DNA of 32,000 nt from Bellilinea caldifistulae (GTDB taxonomy: Bacteria; Chloroflexota; Anaerolineae; Anaerolineales; Anaerolineaceae). Positions within the stretch are counted from its first letter, which is position 1. Each line of letters opens with the position of its first letter. Below the pieces are notes generated by a model. It ran no database searches. It had not been told where the DNA came from and saw nothing but the letters and a program-made list of their open reading frames with translations. The stretch spans positions 1 through 32,000 of the forward strand of contig NZ_LGHJ01000014.1 of NCBI RefSeq assembly GCF_001306055.1, written 5' to 3'. Made by a program: the position numbers and the translations under genes. Positions 9,439 through 23,784 of this stretch are shown piece after piece.

Positions 9439-12400
9439 TTAGAAGCCTTCCAGACGTGAGAAGTCAGCCACGCCGCGTGCCAATCCGGCAATCCGTTGTA
9501 ACATCCCCAGACGGTTGGCGCGTTGAACAGCATCCTCCGACATCACCAGCACTTCGTCAAAGAAGTGGTTGATCACCGGAATCATGGGCAGGAAGACGTT
9601 AAAGAAATCCTCAACCGAGCCGCTGCGGCGCGGGGTGGTTTCGGCTTGCAGCAGGGCGCTGAGCAAGGCCTTTTCGGCGTCCTCAACCAGCGCGTCTGGT
9701 TCGATGGAGAAAGTTTCCTGCTGATCGCGGGTGATGCGTACACAACGGGCGTAGGCCGGTAAAATCCGGTTCCAATCCTCGCGCTGCACCCATTGCTGCA
9801 GTTGCTGAACAGCGCGGAAAGCGGCCGCCGGATTGTGACCCTGCTCTGCCAGCACGGCGGCAATCACATCGTAGCGATAGCCTTCTTCCAGCAGGTAGCT
9901 TTGCAAGCGCCCGATGATGAACTCCAGACAGGTTTGCAGGCTTTCGGGACTGGCGGGGATGGGCAGTCCCTTGGCGGCGGCTTGTAGCCCGGCTCGCAGG
10001 TCAAAATCCAGATTCCAGTGAATCAGGTTTTGTACCAATCCCAGGGCAGCCCGACGCTGAGCAAAGGGGTCTTTGGTTCCGGAAGGGGCTAATCCGGCAG
10101 CAAACAGTCCGGCGAGCGTGTCCAGCCGGTCGGCCATACCGACCAGCAGGCCAGCCGGCGATTGCGGATAATCGTCCCCGGCGTAGCGCGGTAGGTACGA
10201 TTCAAAGATGGCCTGGGCAACGGCGGGAGACTCGCCGCTGTGCAGCGCGTAATAGCGTCCCATCAGCCCTTGCAGGCTGGTCATTTCGATGACCATGTTG
10301 GTGACCAGGTCGGCTTTGCACAGGTGAGCGGCACGGCGAGCGGCAGCTGCCTGTTCGTCCTTCAATCCGACTGTGGAAATCAATTGCTCCACCAGCCTTT
10401 CGATCCGCTGGGTTTTATCCAGCATCGAACCCAGTTTGACTTGAAAAGTGAGGGTGTGCAGGCGGGGCAGGAAGGCTTCCAGCGGTTGTTTCAGGTCTTC
10501 CTGAATGAAAAAGGCTGCATCGGCAAAGCGGGCGCGGATGACCTGCTCGTTGCCGTCCACCACCACTTCCTTAAAACGTTCATCCCCATTGCGGATGACG
10601 ATAAAGTAAGGTAAGAGACTGCCATCCGTTTTGTAAACCGGGAAGTAACGCTGGTACTTCTTCATCACCGAAATCAGCACTTCTGCCGGTAATTGGAGAT
10701 GGGCTTCGTCGAATGACCCGCGCAATGCGGCAGGCGCTTCCACCAGACCGGTGACTTCGTCCAGCAGGTTTTCATCCAGATGAGCCGGGTCTCCCCCGCA
10801 TTCGGCAATCAATTGCTCCGCCTGTCGGCGGATGCTGGCGCGCCGTTCCTGCGGGTCGAGCAGGATACCCTGACTGGCGAGGAACTCCAAATAGGCCGAA
10901 ACGCCGGTGATTTCGGTGGTTTCCGGCTGGCGAAAGCGCAGCCCGCGGGTCTGGTTGCCGCTGGTCAAACCGGCATACTGGAACGGGATGACCTGATCAT
11001 CCAACAATGCCAGCAGCCAGCGGATGGGGCGGGAAAAACTCACCCCGGATTGGTTCCAGCGCATGGATTTGGTGAAACTGAGTGAGTCAATCAACGGGGG
11101 TAGAGCGGGGGCCAGAACTTCAACGGCCGGCTTACCGGCTTCAAAGACGCGCGCAATGGCATATTGACCGCCGTCCATTTCCGCTACCTGCAATTGACTG
11201 ACATCCAGACCGCGGCTGCGGGCAAACCCGATGGCGGCCGGGGTGGGGTTGCCGTTTTGATCAAAAGCGCGCTGAGCAGGCGGCCCTTTGACCACTGTTT
11301 CGCGGTCAGTTTGACGGTCTGCCAGATCCTCCACAATGACGGTTAAACGGCGCGGTGTACCCAGAACATGCACCTTGCCGTGGGTCAGGCGTAATTCTTC
11401 CAGCAATTGCGGAACGCGCTGCTGCAATTGGCTCAGGGCATCCTCCAAATCGCCGGCGGGAAGTTCCTCTGTGCCGATTTCCAGCAGGAAGCTGGCCGGC
11501 CGGCTGAGAGGACGGGGTGCAGCGGAGGGGGCTGCCGCAATGTCAGCCGAAGAGGGCTGGCTTTTGCCGGTTAGCATGGGGTATCCAAGCCGTTCGCGCT
11601 GTTCCAGATAGGCGCGCGCCACTTTGGCCGAAAGGTCACGCATGCGCGCGAACATGGCAGCTCGCTCGGTCACGCCGACCGCCCCGCGGGTATCCAGGAT
11701 ATTGAAGGTGTGGGAGCATTTCAGCACATAATCATGGGCGGGAAGAACCAACCCGTGTTCGAGTGCGTTGAGCGCTTCGGCTTCGAACAGGCTCATCATC
11801 TGGCGTGCCCGTTCGACATCGGCGATTTCGAAGTAGTACTTGCTGTGTTCCTGTTCGCCCTGCAGATTCACATCCCCATAAGTGCGTTCCGGGCTCCAGC
11901 GAATATCGCGGAAATTACGCACTTTTTGCAGCGCCATGGCAATTCGTTCCAGCCCGTAGGTAATTTCCACCGAAACCGGATCCAGCACAATTCCGCCGGC
12001 CTGCTGGAAGTAAGTGAACTGGGTGATTTCCTGCCCATCCAGCCAGACTTCCCAACCCAGCCCCCAGGCGCCCAGCGCCGGGGATTCCCAGTTATCCTCG
12101 ACGAAGCGGATATCGTGTTGATCGGGATCAATGCCCAGCGCTTGCAGAGATTGGAGGTAAATCTCCTGCGGGTTGCCGGGGTCTGGTTTGAGGATGACCT
12201 GGAACTGGTAGTGCTGCTGCAAGCGGTTGGGGTTTTCGCCGTAGCGCCCATCGTCCGGGCGGACGGATGGTTCGACATAGGCTACTTTCCAGGGCTCCGG
12301 GCCGAGAACCCGCAGAAAAGTTGCCGGGTTGTAGGTACCGGCACCGACCTGTGTGTAATAGGGTTGCCAGATCAGGCAACCCTGTTCGGCCCAAAAGCGC

Positions 12401-12479: not shown

Positions 12480-12510
12480 ATTATACTACGGATGAGAATT
12501 GATTTGTCAG
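12480..12510 (-). promoter_or_regulatory. Candidate glyQS promoter (CTGACA-19-TATAAT)
   Basis: On the minus strand, TATAAT is at 12485-12480 and CTGACA at 12510-12505, with a 19-nt spacer, which is long. The predicted 5' UTR is about 30 nt and contains the GGAG SD. The -35 overlaps, on the opposite strand, the -35 of the divergent regulator promoter. Confidence 0.4.
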
Positions 12511-12532
12511 CAGCCGAAAATTGCACTACAAT
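12504..12532 (+). promoter_or_regulatory. Candidate sigma-70-type promoter TTGTCA-17-TACAAT for the STAND/SARP regulator
   Basis: TTGTCA is at 12504-12509 and TACAAT at 12527-12532, with a 17-nt spacer. ATG 12543 lies 10 nt after the -10, so any leader would be about 3-4 nt, which is effectively leaderless. Confidence 0.45.
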
Positions 12533-12542
12533 CGAAGATGCT

Positions 12543-15500
12543 ATGGCATTTCGAGATCTGGTCATCCAAAGCCAGTTGATCCCGCCGCTGCCGCGCAAAG
12601 CCATACTCCCCCGTCCCCGGATTCGTTCGTTGCTGCAACGCGCCCTGCAGCATCCCTTGACCTTGCTGTTGGCCGGTACGGGTTACGGAAAGTCCACCGC
12701 CTTGCTCGATTTGAGCCAGGAAGGCCGGCGCATCTTCTGGTACACCGTCAACGAGCCGGAGCGTGATCCACTGTTGTTTCTGGTTCATCTGATCAATGCC
12801 TTTGCTCAGCAAAATGAAGAATACGGGCGAGATGCTTTGCGCTACCTGGAAGAACATAACGGCCGGGCGGTGCCTTCGGCATTGACGCCGCTTTTGAACG
12901 CTTTGACTGCCCACCTGTTGGAAGATGGCGTGCTGGTGATGGATGATTATCACTGGGTGCACGACGTGCCGGAAATTGCTGCGCTGGTACGTCATCTGAT
13001 TCAATACCGTCCACCGCGCTTGCAGGTGGTCATCGCAACCCGGACAATGCCGGATAATCTGGACTTGAACCGCTGGCGGGTCAAGGGTGAATTGAGTGTG
13101 GTGACGCATAGCGATCTGGCATTTACAGCCGAAGAAATTGAAGCCCTTTTTCGCGAGGGATATGGCTTTCCGATTACCTCTCAGCAGGCTGCCCGCCTTG
13201 CACAAGAAACCGAGGGGTGGGCGCTGGTGCTGCAAATGATCTGGCAAAGTGTCCAGCGTCGGCCTTCCGCTTCGTTGGATCAGGTGCTGGAAAATTTGCC
13301 GGAAACTCTGGAAAGTTTGTTTGACTATCTGGCGCCGGAGGTGCTTGCCCGCCAGCCGCAGGACATTCAGCAATTTTTGATAGACACCTCCATTTTGCGT
13401 CAGCTGGAAGGCGAGATTTGCGATGGATTATTAGGTATCGAAGATAGTGCAGCCCTGTTGCGGCGGTTGTACGAGAGCGGAATGTTCATTGAGGCGGCCG
13501 GCGGACAGGTTTACCGTTACCAGCGGCTTTTTCAGGAGTTTTTACAAACCCGCCTGAATCAGCAGCCTGCCGAAGCACGCGCTTTACACCTGCGCGCCGC
13601 AACCCTCTACCTGGATCGAAAGCGCTCCGAAGAAGCCATCTACCACCTGCTCAAAGCCGGTGAGGCTGCTTTTGCGGCGGATGTCATTGAACAGATCGGC
13701 ATGGGGTTGATTCGCAGCGGACGGCTGGAAAGTTTGCAATACTACCTCAGCCGTTTGCCAGCCGAGTTGAAGGCCGAGCGGCCGTTGCTTCAATTGCTGC
13801 TGGGAGACCTTCATCGTTTGCGTGCCGATTTTGAACCTTCATTGCTGCATTTCCGCGCTGCCGAGCAACTCTACCGTCAGCAGGGGGATCGCTGGGGCTG
13901 CAGCCGGGCATTGCGCGGCCAGGCTCAGGTCTTTCTGGATACTATCCGTCCGTTACAAGCCGATGCCCTGCTGGAAGAAGCCCTACGTTTGCTGGAACCG
14001 CAAGAGCACCGCGAAGAAGTTGCTGCCTTGCTGGATCAACTGGCGGAGAACAAACTGAACCTCGGTAAGCCGGATGAGGCCCGCGTGCTGCATCGAGAAG
14101 CTCAGTTGCTGCGTGCCGAGACCAGCCCGAACGATGTGTATCTGGAAGGGCGCGCTCTGCTGCGTACCGGCCGACTGATCGAGGCCCGTCAGTTGATGTT
14201 GAATCAGGCTGCTGAGGAAAGACGCCATGAGGCACAGCGCGCCCAACGGTTTCACCGTGAAACGCTGCTGCTGCTTTCGTTGATTTGTTCAATGCTGGGC
14301 AGCGCAGAAGAAGCCGAGCGTTACGCCCGCGAGGGAATTGCCATCGGCAAGCGTTTGCAATCCGAGTTTGTTGAAGCCGTAGGTTTGATCCGCCTGGGAC
14401 ATGCCTTGCAGGTGGGCCATGTTCAGCCGTGGGGTGAGCCCTCTCTTCGGAAAGCCATTGATTTATATCGGCGAGCCATTGAATTAATGCACCCTTTCAA
14501 AGTGGCGCGGGTGGGCGTGGAACCGCTGTGGGGTCTCACCCGGGGGTTGGGTTACGCAGGAGAGCTGGCAGAAGCCGAGGATTGTGCCCGCCGAGCGCTG
14601 GCGATTTCTGAAAAGGCCGGCGATGAGTGGATTGGCAATCTGGTGCGCACCAGTATGGGGGCTTCGTTCGCGCTTGACGGGCAATTTCGTACGGCAAGGG
14701 AGTGGCTGGAGCGCGCCGCGCAGGGTTTTGAGTCGGTGCGTGACCGCTTTGGTTGGACGGCTGCCAGGTTGTGGCTGGCGTGGATGGACTGGTACGGCGA
14801 GGAGCGCGGCCGGGCTTTGATGGAATTGGAGCAGATTTTAGAGCGACAGGAAGGGCCGGATGCTGCGGTGCTGTTTACCAGCCCAACCCTGCTGGGCTGG
14901 AAGGACGAACAGACCCTTGTCCCCATTCTGCTGGCAGCCCGTCGTCAGGGAATTGGCGGAGAATACCTGCTTAAAGTGCTGAACAATTTCTCGATAGAAG
15001 GTGACTATCACCCGGCTTACACGCTGTATGTGCGAACGCTGAGTGATTTTGGGGTGTGGCGCGGGGATCAAAAAGTCCACTCCGCTGAGTGGCAGCGCGA
15101 AAAAGCCCGCCAGTTGTTTCAATTGTTGATTACCAACCGCCAGCGCTGGCTGCTGCGCGATCAGATTGTTGACCTGCTCTGGCCGGAACTGGATGGTGAA
15201 TCGGCGGTGCGGGACTTCAAAGTGGCCCTGAATGCGCTTAACCGCACCATTGAGCCGCAGCGTCCCCGCGAGACAGCTCCTTTCTTTGTGCGACGCCAGG
15301 AGAATATGTACGGAATCAATCCGCAGGCAAAGGTGGTTGTGGATGCAGATGAATTTGAAAGACTGGCTTCCGAAAGTCTGAGTGATGAAGAAAGTCTGCG
15401 TCGGGCGCTTGACCTTTATCAGAATGATTATTTGCACGAATGTTGTTACGAGGATTGGAGCAGTATTGAACGCGAGCGGCTGCGTCAGGTTTACTTCACC

Positions 15501-15755
15501 GCCGTCCAGCGGCTGGGGGAGTTACTGGGCAGTCAGGGCCGTTGGGATGAGGTGATTGCGGTTTGCAATGCCGCTCTGCTACGCGATCGCACCTGGGAGC
15601 CGGCTTACCGCTTGATCATGCAGGCCTACGCTGCCAAAGGCAATCAGGCGCAGGTCATTCAGACCTATCAGCGCTGCTGGAAGATCCTTTGGGACGAAGT
15701 GGGGGTTGAACCATCTCTGGAAACGCGTGATTTGTTGCGCCGCCTGACCGCCTGA
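12543..15755 (+). CDS. Large transcriptional regulator: MalT/LAL-type STAND ATPase N-terminus, helical/TPR-like middle, C-terminal SARP-type winged helix + BTAD domain
   Basis: The N-terminus is LIPPLPRKAILPRPRIRSLL, like the MalT N-terminus. Walker A is LLLAGTGYGKST and Walker B is GVLVMDDYHWV. A long helical repeat region follows. The C-terminal 245 aa (from nt 15018) have an OmpR/SARP-type wHTH (REKARQLFQLLITNRQRWLLRDQIVDLLWPELDGESAVRDFKVALNALNRTIEP). They also have a BTAD domain (LDLYQNDYL...WEPAYRLIMQAYAAKGNQAQVIQTYQRCWKILWDEVGVEPSLETRDLLRRL). The start is moved from 12492 to ATG 12543 because 12492-12542 holds the promoter elements. Confidence 0.85.
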   Translation: MAFRDLVIQSQLIPPLPRKAILPRPRIRSLLQRALQHPLTLLLAGTGYGKSTALLDLSQEGRRIFWYTVNEPERDPLLFLVHLINAFAQQNEEYGRDALRYLEEHNGRAVPSALTPLLNALTAHLLEDGVLVMDDYHWVHDVPEIAALVRHLIQYRPPRLQVVIATRTMPDNLDLNRWRVKGELSVVTHSDLAFTAEEIEALFREGYGFPITSQQAARLAQETEGWALVLQMIWQSVQRRPSASLDQVLENLPETLESLFDYLAPEVLARQPQDIQQFLIDTSILRQLEGEICDGLLGIEDSAALLRRLYESGMFIEAAGGQVYRYQRLFQEFLQTRLNQQPAEARALHLRAATLYLDRKRSEEAIYHLLKAGEAAFAADVIEQIGMGLIRSGRLESLQYYLSRLPAELKAERPLLQLLLGDLHRLRADFEPSLLHFRAAEQLYRQQGDRWGCSRALRGQAQVFLDTIRPLQADALLEEALRLLEPQEHREEVAALLDQLAENKLNLGKPDEARVLHREAQLLRAETSPNDVYLEGRALLRTGRLIEARQLMLNQAAEERRHEAQRAQRFHRETLLLLSLICSMLGSAEEAERYAREGIAIGKRLQSEFVEAVGLIRLGHALQVGHVQPWGEPSLRKAIDLYRRAIELMHPFKVARVGVEPLWGLTRGLGYAGELAEAEDCARRALAISEKAGDEWIGNLVRTSMGASFALDGQFRTAREWLERAAQGFESVRDRFGWTAARLWLAWMDWYGEERGRALMELEQILERQEGPDAAVLFTSPTLLGWKDEQTLVPILLAARRQGIGGEYLLKVLNNFSIEGDYHPAYTLYVRTLSDFGVWRGDQKVHSAEWQREKARQLFQLLITNRQRWLLRDQIVDLLWPELDGESAVRDFKVALNALNRTIEPQRPRETAPFFVRRQENMYGINPQAKVVVDADEFERLASESLSDEESLRRALDLYQNDYLHECCYEDWSSIERERLRQVYFTAVQRLGELLGSQGRWDEVIAVCNAALLRDRTWEPAYRLIMQAYAAKGNQAQVIQTYQRCWKILWDEVGVEPSLETRDLLRRLTA

Positions 15756-15870: not shown

Positions 15871-16635
15871 ATGCGGTTAAAGGATAAGGTGTGTCTGATA
15901 ACGGGAGGCGCAGCCGGAATCGGGAAAGCCACAGCCCAGCGTTTTGCTGAGGAAGGGGCCATTGTGGTGATTTGCGATGTCAACCGTGAAGCCGGCGAAG
16001 CCCTGGTAAAGGAGCTTGGGGAACCAGCCTGCTTTTACGCGGTCAATGTCGCCGACCGGGCTGAGGTGCAGGCCTGGGTTGACGACGTGGTGCGTCGTTT
16101 TGGGCGGGTAGATGTGCTGGTCAACAATGCCGGTATCACCCGCGATGCGCTCTTCGTCAAGGTCAAAGACGGTGAACTGGTTAAGCAGATGGAAGAAAGC
16201 GCCTTTGATCAGGTGATTGACATCAACCTCAAAGGGGTCTTCAATTGCGCCCAGGCAGTTGCTCCGTTCATGATTCGGCAGGGCGGTGGCGTGATCCTCA
16301 ATGCCTCTTCGGTGGTGGGTCTGTACGGCAACGTCGGTCAGACCAATTATGTTGCCACCAAAGCCGGGGTGATTGGGATGACGAAGGTGTGGGCGCGGGA
16401 ATTGGGACGGTACAATATCCGTGTCAATGCGGTGGCACCCGGTTTCATTGCCACCGAAATGGTGCAAAAGATGCCCGAAGAGATCTTAGCCGGTATGAAA
16501 GCCAAGACCCCGCTTGGCCGGCTGGGAGATCCGCGCGATATTGCCAATGCCTATCTCTGGCTGGCCAGTGATGAGGCCAGTTTTGTGCATGGCGCCACCA
16601 TCAGTGTGGATGGCGGTATTGTGATGGGTACATAA
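15871..16635 (+). CDS. Short-chain dehydrogenase/reductase, FabG-like 3-oxoacyl/3-hydroxyacyl (CoA or ACP) oxidoreductase
   Basis: The cofactor-binding motif is TGGAAGIGKA, and NNAG is present. The catalytic Ser is in ASSVVG and the catalytic Tyr/Lys in YVATK. An SD-like AGGAGG is at 15856-15861. This is an internal ATG of ORF 15784..16635. Confidence 0.9.
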   Translation: MRLKDKVCLITGGAAGIGKATAQRFAEEGAIVVICDVNREAGEALVKELGEPACFYAVNVADRAEVQAWVDDVVRRFGRVDVLVNNAGITRDALFVKVKDGELVKQMEESAFDQVIDINLKGVFNCAQAVAPFMIRQGGGVILNASSVVGLYGNVGQTNYVATKAGVIGMTKVWARELGRYNIRVNAVAPGFIATEMVQKMPEEILAGMKAKTPLGRLGDPRDIANAYLWLASDEASFVHGATISVDGGIVMGT

Positions 16636-16673: not shown

Positions 16674-17660
16674 ATGTCTCGATTTGCTACCATCATTGGA
16701 ACGGGTCACTATCTGCCGCCAATTGAACGCCCTAACCGGGAAATGCGCGAGCGTTTCGGCGAAGTGATTGATAAGTTCGAAGCCTCGTCTGGCATTACCA
16801 CCCGCTGGTACGCCCCGGATGACTGGGTAACCTCGGATCTGGCGGTAGAAGCTGCGCGGGAGGCATTGAAAGACGCCGGCATCCAGGCCGAGGATCTGGA
16901 CATGATCATTCTGGGCACCGACAGCCCCGACTACATTACCCCGGCCACCTCGGTGGTCGTTCAGCACAAATTGGGGGCCGTCAAGGCCGGCACATTTGAT
17001 ATTGGATGTGCGTGTGCGTCGTTTCCTACCGGCCTGAACATCGCTGCCGGATTGCTGGCAACCTCTTACCAGATGAAATATGTGCTGGTGGTGGGTGCTT
17101 ATATGATGCACAAATTGTGCGACTGGCAAAATGATGTGATGTCCTTCTTCTACGGCGATGGGGCCGGTGCCGCGGTATTGACCTATTCGGATAAGCCGGG
17201 TTTCATCAGCTCAACCTTCTTTGCGGATGGTTCTTACCACAAACATTGGGGAATTTACTCCGGTGGCACCTACGAACCGGCAACGGTGGAAAGTGTGCAG
17301 GCCGGCCGAACGCAGGTGCGCTTCATCACTCCCTTCCCGCCGGAGGTCAATAACGAGGGCTGGCCGAAGCGGATGCGCGAACTGGCCGCCAACGGCAATT
17401 TTGACCTGCAGGATGTGGACATGGCGCTGTACACTCAGGTGCGCCTGAACAGCATCAAACTGGTGCAGGAAACCCTCGGTCTGCCGCTGGAAAAGACCCA
17501 CTGGATCATGGATAAATGGGGCTATACCGGTTCGGCTTGCATTCCAATGGTGTTTGATGACGCCCGTAAACAGGGCAAGATCAAATCCGGCGATCTGGTG
17601 ACCTTTGTCGGTTCGGGGGTGGGCTACAATCAGGCCGGTTCAGCCTTCATTATGCCCTGA
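16674..17660 (+). CDS. KAS III (FabH)-fold protein with a degenerate catalytic triad (Cys retained; His and Asn replaced)
   Basis: FabH-like blocks are DIGCACASF (Cys114), FYGDGAGAAVL and a C-terminal GSGVGYNQAGSAF. The HQAN block reads YTQVR (His to Thr254). The GNTSAAS block reads GYTGSAC (Asn to Tyr284). The SD AAGGAGG is at 16654-16660. ATG 16674 is preferred over TTG 16650. Confidence 0.85.
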   Translation: MSRFATIIGTGHYLPPIERPNREMRERFGEVIDKFEASSGITTRWYAPDDWVTSDLAVEAAREALKDAGIQAEDLDMIILGTDSPDYITPATSVVVQHKLGAVKAGTFDIGCACASFPTGLNIAAGLLATSYQMKYVLVVGAYMMHKLCDWQNDVMSFFYGDGAGAAVLTYSDKPGFISSTFFADGSYHKHWGIYSGGTYEPATVESVQAGRTQVRFITPFPPEVNNEGWPKRMRELAANGNFDLQDVDMALYTQVRLNSIKLVQETLGLPLEKTHWIMDKWGYTGSACIPMVFDDARKQGKIKSGDLVTFVGSGVGYNQAGSAFIMP

Positions 17661-17673
17661 TGGCAGGAGGAGT

Positions 17674-19038
17674 ATGAATCCCGCTGAAGTCTATAAAAGT
17701 AAATTGATCTCCATCCCCGAGGCGGTCAGCCTTGTTCAATCTCACCAGACGATTGGGGTGGCGATTGCTGCTTCGGAGCCGCCAGGATTGTTGAGCGAAT
17801 TGGGCAATCACAAGGATCGCCTGGAAGATGTGACGGTGTGGGTGTGCCTGCCCTTACGGGCGTATGAATATGCTACCAACCCGGAGATGGCTGGCCACTT
17901 CTTTGTGGAAAACTGGTTTTATGGCGCGCCGGATCGCAAAGTTCACCCGCAGGGGCGCATGTCTTACATCCCCAATAATCTGCACCGTGCCTCGACCGAT
18001 AAATTGCTTGCCAGTGGCGGCAAAGTCAACATCTTTTGGGGAACGGCTACCCCGCCTGACTCGCGCGGCTATCTTTCGCTTTCTCTGGGGCTGGTTATCG
18101 AAAAACAATTGATGGAAGCCGCCGATCTGGTCGTTTTGGAAATCAACGAAAACCTGCCGTATACCCTCGGCGATACGCAGGTGCACATTTCGGAAGTGGA
18201 TTATGTTGTAGAAAACCATGTGCCGTTGTTTGAACTGCCTCCTGCTCCGCCAAGCGAAGCCGAACAGGCGATTGGCGGTTATATTGCCGATTTGATTCAA
18301 GACGGTTCCACGCTACAACTGGGCATCGGCGGCATCCCCAATGCCATTACTCCCTTCCTGATGAACCGCCGGGATCTGGGCATTCATACCGAGATGTTTA
18401 CAGATGGCATGGTGGATTTGTACGAAGCCGGGGTGGTGACTAACCGCCGAAAAACGCTCTGGAAAGGCAAAATGGTGGGGGCATTTGCGCTGGGCACCCG
18501 CAAGCTGTATGACTTTGTGGATCGCAATCTGGGGGTGGAGTTTCAGCAGGGCAAAGTGACCAACGATCCGTTTGTGATTGGCCAGAACTACCGCATGATC
18601 AGTGTCAATACCGCCTTGCAGGTAGATTTGTTCGGACAGGTCTGCTCGCAAAGCATCGGTTATCGCCATTTCAGCGGAACGGGCGGACAACTGGACACGC
18701 ACCGCGGCGCACAGCTTTCCCCCGGTGGACGCGGAATCATTGCCCTGCGCTCCACAGCGCGGGATGGACAGATTTCGACGATTGTACCCATCCTCTCGGA
18801 AGGCGCCGAAGTGACTGTGCCCAGTCAGGATGTGGATACGATTGTGACCGAGTACGGGGTGGCCGAACTACGCGGGCGCTGTGTGCGCGATCGCATGGAA
18901 GCCCTGATACGGATTGCCCACCCCGACTTTCGCGAGTGGCTGCGCGAGGAAGCCCACCGGCTGGGGATTGTCCCCCGCCTGGTTGTGCCGGGGGTGCGCC
19001 TTGCTGAACAAGAAGCCAGACCATCATCCGATTCATAA
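17674..19038 (+). CDS. Family I CoA-transferase of the acetyl-CoA hydrolase / 4-hydroxybutyrate CoA-transferase type
   Basis: The length is 454 aa. GIHTEMFTDGMVDL holds the catalytic Glu context, and FSGTGGQLD is the GGQxD motif. The SD AGGAGG sits in the 13-nt spacer after the preceding stop. Confidence 0.9.
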   Translation: MNPAEVYKSKLISIPEAVSLVQSHQTIGVAIAASEPPGLLSELGNHKDRLEDVTVWVCLPLRAYEYATNPEMAGHFFVENWFYGAPDRKVHPQGRMSYIPNNLHRASTDKLLASGGKVNIFWGTATPPDSRGYLSLSLGLVIEKQLMEAADLVVLEINENLPYTLGDTQVHISEVDYVVENHVPLFELPPAPPSEAEQAIGGYIADLIQDGSTLQLGIGGIPNAITPFLMNRRDLGIHTEMFTDGMVDLYEAGVVTNRRKTLWKGKMVGAFALGTRKLYDFVDRNLGVEFQQGKVTNDPFVIGQNYRMISVNTALQVDLFGQVCSQSIGYRHFSGTGGQLDTHRGAQLSPGGRGIIALRSTARDGQISTIVPILSEGAEVTVPSQDVDTIVTEYGVAELRGRCVRDRMEALIRIAHPDFREWLREEAHRLGIVPRLVVPGVRLAEQEARPSSDS

Positions 19039-19051
19039 ACAGGAGGAAATC

Positions 19052-20116
19052 ATGAACATGCCTCAACCTCTACCGGGTGTAACGTCGCAGATGATTCAAA
19101 CCCCGCGCCTGAACCTGCACGTTTTGACAAGCGGAGATGCGGCCGGTGTACCGGTGATCTTTCTGCATGGGAATTTTTCGGCTGCTCTTTACTGGGAGGA
19201 GACCATGCTGGCTCTGCCGGCCGGTTTTCGGGCAATTGCTCCGGATTTGCGCGGTTACGGCTGGACAGAAGATGTGCTGATCAATTCGACCCGCGGTTAC
19301 CGGGACTGGTGCGATGACCTCGCGGCTTTGATGGATGTGCTGGGTGTGGAAAAGGCGCATCTGGTGGGCTGGTCAATGGGTGCGGGCATCATTTACCGGT
19401 TTATCGGTGATTTTCCTGCCCGCGTACTGAGCGCAACCCTCATTTGTCCGGTTTCACCGTACGGTTTTGGCGGCACCAAGGGAGTAGAAGGTACGCCGTT
19501 GTTTGAGGATCATGCCGGCTCCGGCGGTGGAGTGGTCAATCAGGAATTTGTCAAGCGCATTCAGGCACAAGACCGTTCCAGTGATGACCCCAACTCCCCA
19601 CGAAATATCATCAACGCCTTTTATTATGTGCCGCCCTTCCGCGCCGCACGGGAGGAGGAATTTCTGACCGCATCCTTGATGGAAAAAACCGGCCCAGACC
19701 GTTATCCGGGAGATTTCGTTCCCTCGCCCAACTGGCCGTTCGTGGCGCCAGGGGTGCACGGGCCGGTCAATTGCTGGTCATTGAAATATCTCAAGGCGGA
19801 TGTACCGGACCTGCTGGCTGCTCAGCCAAAACCGCCTGTGCTGTGGGTGCGTGGTAGCCACGACCTGATTGTTTCGGACACCTCGTTTTTCGATATTGCC
19901 AATCTAGGCAAACTGGGGTACGTACCCGGCTGGCCGGGTGATGAGGTGGCGCCACCTCAGCCCATGTTGCAGCAAACCCGCGCTGTTCTTGAAAAATACG
20001 CGGCTGCCGGGGGGGCCTATGAGGAGCATGTCATCGAAAATACCGCCCACAGCCCGCACATCGAAAAACCGGATGTGTTTAATGCATTGTTCCACGAATT
20101 CTTGAAGAAAGCCTGA
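19052..20116 (+). CDS. Alpha/beta-fold hydrolase (Ser-Asp-His)
   Basis: IFLHGNFSAALYWEE forms the oxyanion region. The nucleophile elbow is GWSMGAG. Candidate Asp and His are in RGSHDLIV and NTAHSPHIE. The SD AGGAGG sits in a 13-nt spacer. Confidence 0.85.
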   Translation: MNMPQPLPGVTSQMIQTPRLNLHVLTSGDAAGVPVIFLHGNFSAALYWEETMLALPAGFRAIAPDLRGYGWTEDVLINSTRGYRDWCDDLAALMDVLGVEKAHLVGWSMGAGIIYRFIGDFPARVLSATLICPVSPYGFGGTKGVEGTPLFEDHAGSGGGVVNQEFVKRIQAQDRSSDDPNSPRNIINAFYYVPPFRAAREEEFLTASLMEKTGPDRYPGDFVPSPNWPFVAPGVHGPVNCWSLKYLKADVPDLLAAQPKPPVLWVRGSHDLIVSDTSFFDIANLGKLGYVPGWPGDEVAPPQPMLQQTRAVLEKYAAAGGAYEEHVIENTAHSPHIEKPDVFNALFHEFLKKA

Positions 20117-20129
20117 AGGAGAAATTTTT

Positions 20130-21392
20130 ATGAGCCAACGGAAATTAGGGCGAGGTGTGGCCGTTGTGGGTGCCGGCATGAGCAAGTTCGGCTGTTACAA
20201 CGGCATGGCCACACGGGATATCTTTGTTGAGGCTTATCGCGAAATGCTGTCCTCGGTTGACCGGGGTTTTGATCCGCATGACATTGAAGCCGTTTACATC
20301 GGCAACTACTCCGGCGATCTGTTTGAGGGTCAGGCGCACATGGCTCCACTGATGACCGATTGGGTGGGGCTTGCTCCTCGACCGGCAACCCGGGTCGAGG
20401 ATGCCTGCGCCAGCGGATCGGCGGCTCTGCGGCAAGGGATGCTGGCGGTGGCTTCCGGTTTGTACGATATGGTGATGGTTGGCGGGGTGGAGAAGATGAG
20501 TGAGCTGCCCACCGAGCGGGTAACCGATACGCTGGCAACCGCCTCGGATGTGATTTATGAGGCGGCGGTTGGTTTTACCTTCCCGGCGTTATATGCAGCC
20601 ATGGCAACTGCTTACCTGCACGAATATGGGGCCGACCCGGAAGTTTTTTTGCAGGTGGGTTACAAGAACCATGAACATGGCGCTCTGAACCCCAAAGCCC
20701 AATTCGGGCAGCGTATTCAGGAAATCATGGAAGCGCGCAAAGCCAGTGCAGCCCGCAAAGGTCTGCCCATTCCGGAGTGGAAAGATGAGTTTGAGTTTTT
20801 ACACGATCCGCGCGCCAATCCTTATATTGCCTGGCCGCTGCGGTTATACGACTGCTCACCAATTTCGGATGGGGCTGCAGTGGTCTTGCTGGTAAGTGAG
20901 GATCTTGCCCGCCGGTTCAGCGACGTACCGCTTTACATCATCGGCAGCGGGCAAGCCAGCGATGCCGCTACCCACGATCGGTCAACCCTGACCTCATTGC
21001 CGGCCGCCCGCCGGGCCGCCCGGCAGGCTTATGAGATGGCCAGAATCACCCCGCAGGATGTGGATGCGGTGGAAGTGCATGACTGCTTCACGATTGCGGA
21101 AATCATCGCCAGCGAGGATCTGGGCTTTTTTGCCCCCGGTGAGGGCTGGAAGGCAGCCGAGGACGGGGTGACTTCGTTGAAGGGAAATCGTCCGATCAAC
21201 TCTTCCGGTGGATTGAAATCCAAGGGTCATCCGGTCGGGGCTTCGGGTGTGGGGCAGGTAGTGGAGATCTGGCATCAATTGCGCGGCGAAGCGGGTGAGC
21301 GGCAGATTCCCGGCAGCCCCGCCATTGGTTTAACCCACAATGTCGGCGGCACCGGCCAGACCTGTGTGGTGAACATCTTTGAACGGAGATGA
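20130..21392 (+). CDS. SCP-x / archaeal-type thiolase (acetyl-CoA C-acyltransferase family, DUF35-partnered type)
   Basis: The N-terminus is VAVVGAGMSKFG. The nucleophile context is RVEDACASGSAAL (Cys93, nt 20406-20408). The C-terminal blocks are GGLKSKGHPVGASG and THNVGGTG. The SD AGGAG sits in a 13-nt spacer. Confidence 0.9.
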   Translation: MSQRKLGRGVAVVGAGMSKFGCYNGMATRDIFVEAYREMLSSVDRGFDPHDIEAVYIGNYSGDLFEGQAHMAPLMTDWVGLAPRPATRVEDACASGSAALRQGMLAVASGLYDMVMVGGVEKMSELPTERVTDTLATASDVIYEAAVGFTFPALYAAMATAYLHEYGADPEVFLQVGYKNHEHGALNPKAQFGQRIQEIMEARKASAARKGLPIPEWKDEFEFLHDPRANPYIAWPLRLYDCSPISDGAAVVLLVSEDLARRFSDVPLYIIGSGQASDAATHDRSTLTSLPAARRAARQAYEMARITPQDVDAVEVHDCFTIAEIIASEDLGFFAPGEGWKAAEDGVTSLKGNRPINSSGGLKSKGHPVGASGVGQVVEIWHQLRGEAGERQIPGSPAIGLTHNVGGTGQTCVVNIFERR

Positions 21393-21396
21393 GTGG

Positions 21397-21816
21397 ATGA
21401 GCGAAAACGGAGTGTATACCCATCAATTTTCTGAACATCTGGCGCAGCAGCATTTGACCGGTTCGCGGTGTAAAAAATGCGGGAGGCGGTTTTTCCCGCC
21501 GCGCATTTGGTGCCCGGATTGTCAGCAAAACGATCTGGAAGCCAGCGAATTTTCCGGAAGGGGCAAACTGGCTGCATTTACGGTGGTGTACGTTGCCCCA
21601 ACAGCCATGCTGGCTGCCGGTTATGACCGCAAAAATCCCTATTGTGTGGGGGTGGTAGAGTTAGAAGAAGGGGAACGCATCCCTGCCCAGATATTCGGTG
21701 TGGATGTTCATCACCCGGAAACGATCAAAATAGGGGCTCCGCTTAAGGCGGTTTTTGTGGAACGCGGTGATGGAGAAGGAAAAAAAGTCGTGTTAGGTTT
21801 TGAGGCGTTGGAGTGA
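21397..21816 (+). CDS. DUF35 family protein (N-terminal Zn ribbon + OB fold), thiolase-associated
   Basis: CKKCGRRFFPPRIWCPDCQ is a four-Cys ribbon, followed by an OB-fold-like GKLAAFTVVY...VGVVELEEGERIPAQI. ATG 21397 is 4 nt after the thiolase stop, with GGAG 8 nt upstream. Confidence 0.85.
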   Translation: MSENGVYTHQFSEHLAQQHLTGSRCKKCGRRFFPPRIWCPDCQQNDLEASEFSGRGKLAAFTVVYVAPTAMLAAGYDRKNPYCVGVVELEEGERIPAQIFGVDVHHPETIKIGAPLKAVFVERGDGEGKKVVLGFEALE

Positions 21817-22323
21817 GTGACTCTCGCTGTTCTGCATCATCTTCAAAGGCAGCCAATGGAAACTGACTTGCCGGATCCATCCAATCGCCGTCATCTTCAA
21901 CCGGAGTGGAGCGTGGGAAAGCGCGCCGCGTTGGTCAAGACAATTCAGCCGGCCGATCTGGAAAATTATGCCCGCCTGATGCGAGCAGATCGCGAGACAA
22001 TCGAGAAGGTGGAACACTCTGAGAGTGATCAAGAAGAGCGCACCGCAGTGCCCACCATGTTCCTCGGCGGATTAATCGGCGCAGCCATCCAGCAATATTT
22101 TTGTGAATCCGGTTCAATGTGCCTGAATCAGTATCTCGAATTCATCGCACCAGCGTACACTGGTGATACTGTGACGGCCGTCCTGGAGGTTGATCACGTG
22201 CAGACTGACCGTCCCATCCTTAGGTTGAAAACAGCCTGTACCAATCAAAACGGGCAAGCGTTGGTTACCGGTCAGGCTGTCATTCTCATGCCACAAGGAG
22301 GTGAGCCGCGATCGAAAAGTTAA
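21817..22323 (+). CDS. MaoC-like (R-hydratase-type) hotdog-fold protein lacking the canonical Asp/His dyad
   Basis: It aligns by eye along its length with PhaJ-type hydratases (VGKRAALVKTIQPADLENYA...; C-terminal GDTVTAVLEVDHVQTDRPILRLKTACTNQNGQALVTGQAVILMP). The hydratase motif region reads LMRADRETI instead of S-x-D-x-N-P-x-H. GTG 21817 abuts the DUF35 stop. ATG 21856 is an alternative start. Confidence 0.7.
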   Translation: MTLAVLHHLQRQPMETDLPDPSNRRHLQPEWSVGKRAALVKTIQPADLENYARLMRADRETIEKVEHSESDQEERTAVPTMFLGGLIGAAIQQYFCESGSMCLNQYLEFIAPAYTGDTVTAVLEVDHVQTDRPILRLKTACTNQNGQALVTGQAVILMPQGGEPRSKS

Positions 22324-22401: not shown

Positions 22402-23784
22402 ATGAAAAGGTTGTTGACCATTTTGACTGTGTTGATCCTGGCTTCTTTGGTGCTGGGCGCCTGCGTGCAGCAGGTTACACCCACCGCCGAGCCAACCCAG
22501 CCGCCTGCCCCGACTCAGGCACCGCCCCCCACCCAGGCTCCGACCAAGGCTCCAGAACCGGTGCAAACCGAAGAACCAGTGGTGGAGCTCGGCCCGGTGC
22601 TGAAGATTGGGCAGATCGGCCAGCTTTCCGGTGCGCTGGCACTGTATGGTTTACAACAAACGCGCGGCTTTGAACTGGGGCTGGAATACGCCTCTGGCGG
22701 AAAGACAGATGAAGCCGGCCGCTATATCATTGCTAATCGTCCGGTGGAAGTGCTGGTGCGCGATGATGAAGGCAATCCCGAAAAAGCGGTACAACTGGCA
22801 CGCGAACTGATCGAAAAAGACGGTGTCGAGATCATTCAGGGACCCTCCAGCTCGGCTTCGGCAGCGGCGCTGACCACGGTTGCACTGGAAAACAAGATCA
22901 TCCTGATGGTTGACCCGGCTGCCTCGGCTTTCATTACCGGTCAGTACTTCAATCCATATGTCTTCCGCACCTCGCGAACCAACTACGATGATGTGCTGGT
23001 GATTGCCAAGTACCTGGTTGAGAATGTTGGTTCAAAATTTGCCCACATTGGCATTGATAACGCATTTGGACGCGGCTCCGGTGCGGCGCTGGCTTACGCG
23101 GTGGCGCAATACGGCGGCGAGGTGATTGCCGACATTTACGCTCCACTGGAAACCACCGACTTTACCCCCTACATCCAACAAGCGATGGATTCAGGTGCGG
23201 ACTGCCTGTTCCTGACCTGGGCTGGCACCGGCTATGTGACCCTCTTCCAGCAGTTAGGTGACCTCGGCGCATTGGATCAGATGCAGGTTGCTACCGGCTT
23301 TGGCGATAACGCCTCCTTTGCGGCAGTTTACGGTGCGGCGGTGGGGCAAATCGGGTTGAATGTCTACCACTACACCGCTGCCAATACCGAAATCAACAAG
23401 TGGCTGACCGAAAAGCACCTTGAAAAATACAACGAACCGCCCGATTTGTTCACGGCCGGCGGTATGGCTTCGGCACTGGCGCTGGCGGCTGCACTGGAAA
23501 AGACCGGCGGTGATGCTTCCGGCGATGCGATGATCCCGGCGCTGGAAGGCTTGAAATTTGAAGGCCCGAAAGGTACTTACTACATTCGGCCAGAAGATCA
23601 TGTCTGCCTGCAGCCGATGAACATCCTCAAACTGGTGGACATCAACCCGCCGCTGGATGACAAGGGCCGCCCGACCTATAAATTCTTCGAGACGGTTTAC
23701 GTGACCAAATACGATGAACTGGCAGTGCCCTGCACGCTGACCGGAGAGTACGAATCGCGCTGCGGTGACCTGCCGCGCCCGTAA
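22402..23784 (+). CDS. ABC transporter substrate-binding lipoprotein, LivK / family-4 (Peripla_BP_6-like)
   Basis: The signal peptide with lipobox is MKRLLTILTVLILASLVLGAC. A Pro/Thr/Ala/Gln linker follows (about nt 22474-22575). The type I periplasmic-binding fold is then seen (LKIGQIGQLSGALALYG...). The SD GAAGGAG lies upstream. Confidence 0.9.
   Translation: MKRLLTILTVLILASLVLGACVQQVTPTAEPTQPPAPTQAPPPTQAPTKAPEPVQTEEPVVELGPVLKIGQIGQLSGALALYGLQQTRGFELGLEYASGGKTDEAGRYIIANRPVEVLVRDDEGNPEKAVQLARELIEKDGVEIIQGPSSSASAAALTTVALENKIILMVDPAASAFITGQYFNPYVFRTSRTNYDDVLVIAKYLVENVGSKFAHIGIDNAFGRGSGAALAYAVAQYGGEVIADIYAPLETTDFTPYIQQAMDSGADCLFLTWAGTGYVTLFQQLGDLGALDQMQVATGFGDNASFAAVYGAAVGQIGLNVYHYTAANTEINKWLTEKHLEKYNEPPDLFTAGGMASALALAAALEKTGGDASGDAMIPALEGLKFEGPKGTYYIRPEDHVCLQPMNILKLVDINPPLDDKGRPTYKFFETVYVTKYDELAVPCTLTGEYESRCGDLPRP

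Follow-up and report, generated by a model that had tools for sequence, protein, structure and literature searches.

A KAS III-fold protein of Bellilinea caldifistulae with a conserved Asp-Cys-Asn-Thr-Tyr-Ser signature, encoded in a putative catabolic operon

Fold and family assignment of P0001

P0001 is a protein of the KAS III (ketoacyl-ACP synthase III; ACP, acyl carrier protein) fold encoded in a 32,000-nucleotide stretch of the genome of Bellilinea caldifistulae (assembly GCF_001306055.1, contig NZ_LGHJ01000014.1, positions 1 to 32,000), which is hereafter called the window. It belongs to a clade marked by six invariant residues, among which the catalytic His and Asn of FabH are missing. 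The open reading frame of P0001 occupies positions 16674 to 17660 of the forward strand, on which all the window features described below are located, and gives an intact, stop-free translation of 328 codons (328 amino acids). A Shine-Dalgarno-like sequence, AAAGGAGG, was found 12 nucleotides upstream of its ATG.

Two Pfam domains, ACP_syn_III and ACP_syn_III_C, were detected in P0001 with E-values of 2e-19 and 1e-19, respectively. An AlphaFold2 model built from an input of 81 sequences had a mean pLDDT of 96.4 and a pTM of 0.94, and a Foldseek search with this model ranked FabH structures first (8vd9, 4dfe, and 6x7r; TM score of approximately 0.9, 28-30% identity). P0001 is thus confidently predicted to have the fold of KAS III (FabH). 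On the other hand, none of the NCBIfam models scored P0001 at or above its cut-off. The scores for the FabH models TIGR00747 and NF006829 were 172.6 (cut-off, 292.1) and 195.1 (cut-off, 249), respectively, and those for the HMG-CoA synthase (HMGCS) models NF003274 and TIGR00748 were 61.5 (cut-off, 244) and 42.8 (cut-off, 353). NF005308 (PRK06840, '3-oxoacyl-ACP synthase') gave 162.3 bits against a 315-bit cut-off, and P0001 is therefore not a member of that family. Relatives of P0001 are publicly named ketoacyl-ACP synthase III, and the protein Atlas clusters carry only the same automatic name.

Active-site residues of P0001

E. coli FabH (from NC_000913.3) was mapped by MAFFT onto an alignment of 215 full-length homologues. 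Cys112, His244, and Asn274 of the E. coli enzyme corresponded to Cys114 (codon at 17013 to 17015), Thr254 (17433 to 17435), and Tyr284 (17523 to 17525) of P0001, respectively. In HMMER alignments to the solved FabHs 8vd9, 4dfe, and 4ryb, Cys114 coincided with the FabH Cys, PHQAN was matched by YTQVR, and GNTSAAS was matched by GYTGSAC. The Cys-His-Asn triad is thus replaced by Cys114/Thr254/Tyr284, and Cys114 is the predicted acyl-accepting nucleophile. A first-pass annotation of this DNA had read the three residues and both motif replacements in the same way by eye, and the alignments bear it out. The His and Asn of FabH are needed for malonyl decarboxylation and are dispensable for acetyl transfer to the Cys. 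Since both of these residues and also the His of HMGCS are absent from P0001, the annotation's view that decarboxylative condensation is unlikely holds.

P0001 shares with the FabHs of E. coli (1hn9 and 6x7r) and B. subtilis (FabHA, 8vd9) the fold, both Pfam domains, the Cys at the N-terminus of a helix, and a GDGAGA motif. In addition to the His and Asn replacements, however, it differs from them at several positions. Thr81 of E. coli FabH is replaced by Asp83 (codon at 16920 to 16922) and Phe304 by Ser314 (17613 to 17615), both of which are invariant in the clade of P0001, and the Phe87 position is Ser or Thr in the clade. The loop of FabH containing Met207, Gly209, and Phe213 is replaced by a segment with an invariant Asn226 (17349 to 17351) and a near-invariant Trp230. 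No invariant or near-invariant His was found anywhere in the clade alignment. Trp32, Arg36, Arg151, and Arg249 of E. coli FabH, which we take to be the CoA-adenine-stacking and ACP-docking residues, are kept in 47-65 of the 68 canonical sequences (Trp32 in 65, Arg151 in 60, and Arg249 in 52), whereas these positions are variable in the clade and read Lys34, Ser38, Asp154, and Asn259 in P0001.

The genome of B. caldifistulae also encodes a genuine archaeal-type HMGCS on another contig (C13, L012:278-1351; 538.6 bits to NF003274). In a BLASTP alignment with this protein, GTDSPDY of P0001 was paired with GSESHPY, and the Cys residues of the two proteins were also aligned. Asp83 is aligned with the Glu of GSES and therefore holds the position of the general base of HMGCS (PDB 6esq), although Asp takes the place of Glu, the HMGCS His (Thr in P0001) and Asn are absent, and the similarity is confined to the N-terminal half. 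The annotation had placed GTDS opposite the catalytic Glu of HMGCS (ATES) and had left the weight of this Asp unjudged; its position is confirmed, and it is invariant in the clade and variable (Ser, Ile, Val, or Thr) in canonical FabHs. By eye, and outside the part covered by the alignment, the surroundings of Ser314 may resemble the GSG motif of the HMGCS of the same genome. The annotation had further stated that only the active-site Cys is retained. This is correct insofar as the FabH His and Asn are lost, but it undersells a rebuilt and conserved site in which Asp83, Asn226, and Ser314 are likewise clade-invariant.

Distribution and conservation of the six-residue signature

A protein search yielded 7063 relatives of P0001, the majority of which are likely ordinary FabHs. 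The best 120 of the 7063 were 78-92% identical to P0001, and the named ones among them were mainly from Anaerolineae/Chloroflexota. When representatives at 50% identity were searched exhaustively, the matches extended down to approximately 30% identity. The combination Cys/Thr/Tyr was present in 139 of the 215 full-length homologues and Cys/His/Asn in 68. Apart from fragmentary entries and P0206, which has Ile, every inspected Cys/Thr/Tyr representative had Asp83.

A scan of species-representative genomes and a class-wide genome search provided 38 loci encoding proteins with at least 37% identity to P0001. The signature Asp83-Cys114-Asn226-Thr254-Tyr284-Ser314 was complete in 38 of 38, and these loci are distributed over approximately nine phyla (Chloroflexota, Acidobacteriota, Pseudomonadota, Myxococcota, Bacteroidota, Bdellovibrionota, KSB1, Caldiserica, and Elusimicrobia). 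The carriers of the clade include the cultured strains Aquisalimonas lutea CECT 8326 (L022) and Phaeodactylibacter luteus KCTC 42180 (L037). In contrast, every locus at 36% identity or below reads x-C-x-H-N-[F/V/L/I/G], so that the switch between the two patterns is sharp. In a maximum-likelihood tree (quick search, with the trait columns kept in the alignment), the Cys/Thr/Tyr sequences formed one clade with an SH-aLRT value of 99, which was nested among the canonical FabHs. Judging from these sequences, the active site was rebuilt once and then held fixed. Because the six residues are invariant in all 38 loci, P0001 is predicted to be an active enzyme, and not a relic in decay.

Tandem duplicates of genes of this clade were observed in Caldiserica (L034:9008-9940 and 10001-10975; L036:1028-1960 and 2021-2995). 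Both copies carry the full signature, and they could form a heterodimer.

Fatty-acid synthesis genes of B. caldifistulae

The public names of its relatives raise the question of whether P0001 is the real FabH of this organism, namely, the starter enzyme of fatty-acid synthesis. No canonical FabH was found in the genome, which is 99.7% complete, and P0001 is its best match to the FabH models. However, its scores lie below the FabH cut-offs, the His and Asn are absent, and neither fabD nor acpP adjoins the gene as would be expected in a fab operon. A PF00109 search of the genome gave no FabF/FabB, so that P0001 would have no elongation partner. Furthermore, in the class sample, most genomes with a member of the clade also contain a FabH-like match of 30-35% identity. 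It is therefore extremely improbable that P0001 serves as FabH. The only ketosynthase domain found by the PF00109 search is located in an open frame of 2878 amino acids (contig C26, approximately 235.6-242.9 kb), which also contains two PP-binding domains. Because canonical FabH and FabF/FabB are both missing and the sole ketosynthase domain is in this frame, it is suggested that fatty acids come from a megasynthase instead of type II FAS.

Organization of the operon containing P0001

The order of the genes in the operon is SDR, P0001, CoA-transferase, hydrolase, thiolase, DUF35, hotdog, and Liv-type ABC importer. The first gene (15871 to 16635) encodes a FabG-like classical short-chain dehydrogenase/reductase (SDR), which is the constant neighbour of the clade. 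It has the motif TGGAAGIGK, with no Arg in this Gly motif, and an Asp ending strand β2, and it scored 296.3 bits to NF004198 (cut-off, 296). P0001 is followed by a family-I CoA-transferase (17674 to 19038), whose nearest structures are 4-hydroxybutyrate CoA-transferases (E 1e-104), and by an α/β hydrolase with a Ser in the nucleophile elbow GWSMG (19052 to 20116). An archaeal/SCP-x-type thiolase (20130 to 21392) and a DUF35 protein composed of a zinc ribbon and an OB fold (21379 to 21816; coordinates of the longest open reading frame, the start of which is uncertain) are optional members of the operon. The thiolase keeps its Cys (ACASGS) and His (GHP), and its sequence lies near NF053570, the model for the thiolase of the archaeal complex. 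A MaoC-like hotdog protein (21817 to 22323) is encoded next.

The solute-binding protein of the linked Liv-type ABC importer is encoded at positions 22402 to 23784. The closest solved structures are binding proteins of R. palustris, namely, 3nnd and 3n0x (E 3e-54) and the 4ey3 group, and LivJ/K are far more distant (E ~1e-8). Some of these R. palustris proteins bind aromatic acids. By this sequence similarity, the cargo of the importer is probably an organic acid rather than a branched-chain amino acid. Upstream of the operon, a large TPR/BTAD regulator is encoded at positions 12492 to 15755, a homologue of which is found beside the operon in L016, L029, L030, and L114.

The HMGCS gene on contig C13 is accompanied by a thiolase-like gene (L012:1348-2523, forward strand) and a DUF35 gene (L012:2634-3041). 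The nucleophilic Cys of the window thiolase (ACASGS) is replaced by Gln (GQASGG) in the HMGCS-linked protein, which also has GNP for GHP and DDAFS for HDCFT, whereas the window thiolase keeps these residues. Their scores to the archaeal acetoacetyl-CoA thiolase model were 298 for the HMGCS-linked gene and 415.8 bits for the window thiolase. From these substitutions, the HMGCS-linked protein looks catalytically dead.

Gene neighbourhoods across phyla

The genes that recur around the members of the clade across phyla are those for an SDR, which is usually adjacent, at least one Ser hydrolase, and a ligase resembling fatty-acyl-CoA synthetase (near or above the cut-off of NF004837). Pairs of MaoC hotdog genes are often found. 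Genes for a TonB-type receptor or Liv importer recur as well, as do those for a regulator, either of the TetR or of the large TPR/BTAD type; in addition to TetR, STAND regulators are linked to these operons. The ligase and the CoA-transferase are exchanged between orthologue groups, with the CoA-transferase in the group of the window. This interchange suggests that their job is plain CoA activation. The neighbourhoods show a setting of import, ester hydrolysis, and CoA activation beside an NAD-type FabG-like dehydrogenase.

An Asp at the end of strand β2 is the classical NAD(H) signature of SDRs. Ten of the ten partner SDRs inspected in other loci have this Asp and a TGGxxGIG motif without the FabG Arg, as in the window. 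The nearest structures of the partner SDRs are 4nbw, 4nbu, and 4nbv, which make up an NADH-dependent FabG set, followed by FabGs and the (3R)-hydroxyacyl-CoA dehydrogenase 2et6. 4NBU is an NAD-bound FabG-like enzyme from a study of an NADH-dependent FabG (PMC5264612). From these motifs and relatives, the window SDR is probably a dehydrogenase and not an NADPH-dependent FabG.

Two public proteins found in a search for longer proteins, P0274 and P0275, appear as fusions of an SDR and a KAS with frameshifted junk between the two parts. They were rejected as Rosetta-stone fusions, since they are gene-call artefacts joining two adjacent genes; such entries could mislead surveys of domain architecture. 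An apparent hydrolase-ligase fusion of 863 amino acids in L021 was also rejected, as it is a mere open frame in GC-rich DNA before the ligase.

A second, highly divergent KAS III-like paralogue (23-25% identity) was observed in the operons of the 62-68% orthologues (L111:5981-6958, L113:6793-7773, L114:5090-6085, L112:13638-14633 on the reverse strand, and L018:5475-6473). It is a true member of the NCBIfam PRK06840 family (386 bits for KAS2 in L111). TTEEW is found at the position of Asp83 and the Cys is kept; the FabH His position is occupied by another residue, and a His (IGHxGE) is located at the FabH Asn position. As far as these residues tell, the paralogue has another rebuilt active site.

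Alternative hypotheses: acyl transfer, forward condensation, or a structural role

The above setting would also suit an acyl-S-enzyme transferase without C-C chemistry, in which Cys114 would take the acyl group of a CoA thioester or ester and hand it on to an acceptor atom (O, N, or S), or would work in the opposite direction, as in the KAS III-like acyltransferases of natural-product pathways. The first-pass annotation had put forward such a role. The invariance of Cys114 with loss of the decarboxylation residues agrees with it, as does the constant presence of ester hydrolases and CoA-activating enzymes in the vicinity. The replacement of the FabH CoA/ACP contact positions would be in keeping with a changed acceptor or donor. 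The His is kept in the known KAS III-like acyltransferases, however, whereas the clade of P0001 has no conserved His. Moreover, the fixed carboxylate at the base position of HMGCS and the obligatory 3-oxoacyl/3-hydroxyacyl-type dehydrogenase partner point to chemistry at the α-carbon. We consider a pure transferase unlikely, although it deserves to be kept in mind.

A carboxylate is the hallmark of non-decarboxylative α-carbon chemistry in both OleA and HMGCS. In OleA, the His is retained, and the Glu is contributed by the partner subunit, at the Phe87-type position. The nucleophile of OleB is an Asp. P0001 and OleA are both related to KAS III and have a carboxylate, and the neighbours of P0001 come from the same four families (KAS, SDR, α/β hydrolase, and AMP-ligase) as OleABCD. 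OleA is a precedent in this superfamily for non-decarboxylative Claisen chemistry (PMC8180931 and a reference therein on Glu117). P0001 might accordingly be imagined to act in biosynthesis and to join two CoA thioesters by a non-decarboxylative Claisen or aldol condensation, as in OleA or HMGCS, after which the SDR would reduce and the hydrolase would release the product; the carboxylate at the HMGCS base position and the shared neighbour families speak for this. However, the OleA structures (3row, 4kti, and others) align to residues 25-142 of P0001 only, and the clade has no conserved His. The subtypes of the neighbours also differ from OleB, OleC, and OleD: the hydrolase nucleophile is Ser (GWSMG), by score, the ligases are acyl-CoA synthetases, and in the window a CoA-transferase stands in for them, and the SDR is classical, FabG-like, and NAD-type. 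In addition, importers, TonB receptors, and TetR/STAND regulators are linked to the operons. A forward condensation thus appears improbable, although it, too, should be kept in view, and an Ole-like route to β-lactones or olefins was rejected on the basis of the hydrolase, ligase, and SDR subtypes.

The association with a thiolase and a DUF35 protein bears on another role proposed in the annotation, that of a largely structural subunit like PhlA. P0001 would then occupy the HMGCS/PhlA position in a thiolase/DUF35 complex comparable to PhlACB or to the archaeal complex of thiolase and HMGCS. PhlA is HMGCS-like without the Cys and Glu, and PhlA, PhlB, and PhlC are all required together (PMC6392133). 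The HMGS subunit of the streptococcal ATase is a similar analogue of PhlA (PMC12960953). P0001 resembles PhlA in belonging to the thiolase superfamily and in having the genes for an SCP-x-type thiolase and DUF35 close to its own; the thiolase and DUF35 genes share the operon in the window, L014-L016, L029, L111, L115, and L116, and the window thiolase is near the archaeal complex model. In contrast to PhlA, however, the Cys and the carboxylate are invariant in the clade, as are the other residues of the signature. Furthermore, neither thiolase nor DUF35 is encoded in the operons of L117-L120 (78% identity), the closest orthologues fetched with long flanks, and most loci in other phyla (Acidobacteriota, Bacteroidota, and Bdellovibrionota) likewise lack the two genes. 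In L117-L120, the P0001 orthologue is the only thiolase-superfamily member in the operon, and the hydrolase, CoA-transferase, hotdog protein, and dehydrogenase are all present. The genome of B. caldifistulae also has a genuine triad of HMGCS, thiolase-like protein, and DUF35 elsewhere. Because thiolase/DUF35 is dispensable in close orthologues and the active site is invariant, an obligate structural role is very unlikely, and the PhlA-like proposal is not sustained. A facultative association of P0001 with thiolase/DUF35 in this organism is possible.

Proposed function of P0001

We tentatively propose that P0001 is neither a FabH nor a dead scaffold, and that it may be an active acyl-Cys enzyme, an offshoot of FabH that acts on CoA thioesters in a catabolic pathway and whose C-C chemistry is thiolase-like and non-decarboxylative. 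In the proposed mechanism, the acyl group would be carried as a thioester on Cys114, and Asp83, at the place of the HMGCS base, would shuttle the α-proton. In place of His and Asn, hydrogen bonds to the oxygen of the thioester or enolate would be donated by the Thr254 and Tyr284 hydroxyls and possibly by Asn226. The neighbouring SDR would oxidize a (3R)-hydroxyacyl-CoA to the 3-oxoacyl-CoA, which P0001 would cleave by a retro-Claisen reaction into acetyl-CoA and a shorter acyl-CoA. In the pathway as a whole, a hydroxy-acid or an ester of it would be imported and degraded. P0001 would share with HMGCS its known non-decarboxylative chemistry, and differ from FabH in acting in a catabolic operon instead of a fab operon. 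By analogy, it would also resemble the degradative thiolases in the proposed acyl-Cys, in the shuttling of an α-carbon proton, and in acting on CoA thioesters after a 3-hydroxyacyl-CoA dehydrogenase. P0001 is, however, on another branch of the superfamily and is without the second catalytic Cys and the His, so that this resemblance is purely conjectural.

Several points weigh against this proposal. The closeness of Asp83, Asn226, Thr254, Tyr284, and Ser314 to Cys114 is predicted by homology alone. To our knowledge, no enzyme of the KAS III family acts as a degradative thiolase. The operon in the window already holds an intact thiolase with DUF35, and a second thiolytic enzyme would be redundant there. 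The adenine-stacking residues of FabH are lost, so that the binding of CoA by P0001 is only putative. Finally, the direction of the reaction, cleavage or condensation, and the substrate are deduced from the gene context only.

Implications

No FabH homologue without His and Asn, and no operon of this kind in Anaerolineae, was found described in the literature. The present study defines a signature of six residues for the clade and matches Asp83 to the base position of the genome's own HMGCS; it also finds the partner dehydrogenase to be NAD-type by sequence, ligase and CoA-transferase to be interchangeable, and thiolase/DUF35 to be dispensable. The label of ketoacyl-ACP synthase III for this clade is probably wrong. 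A wrong label would mislead metabolic reconstructions, notably those of Anaerolineae and Acidobacteriota, two groups often found in digesters, sediments, and soils.

It is possible, if doubtful, that the clade represents a new catalytic class in the thiolase superfamily, in which a FabH-derived, His-free site performs C-C cleavage or formation with the assistance of a carboxylate and a Tyr. Paired with an NAD-type FabG-like dehydrogenase, it would constitute a module for (3R)-hydroxy acids and their esters that resembles fatty-acid synthesis run backwards and that has spread by gene transfer over at least nine phyla. If this is true, a fixed, His-free site built on a KAS III scaffold would widen the range of catalysis known in the thiolase superfamily and may offer a new tool for C-C bonds. 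The operon would also mark an unrecognized route for the uptake and breakdown of some ester or hydroxy-acid in many bacteria.

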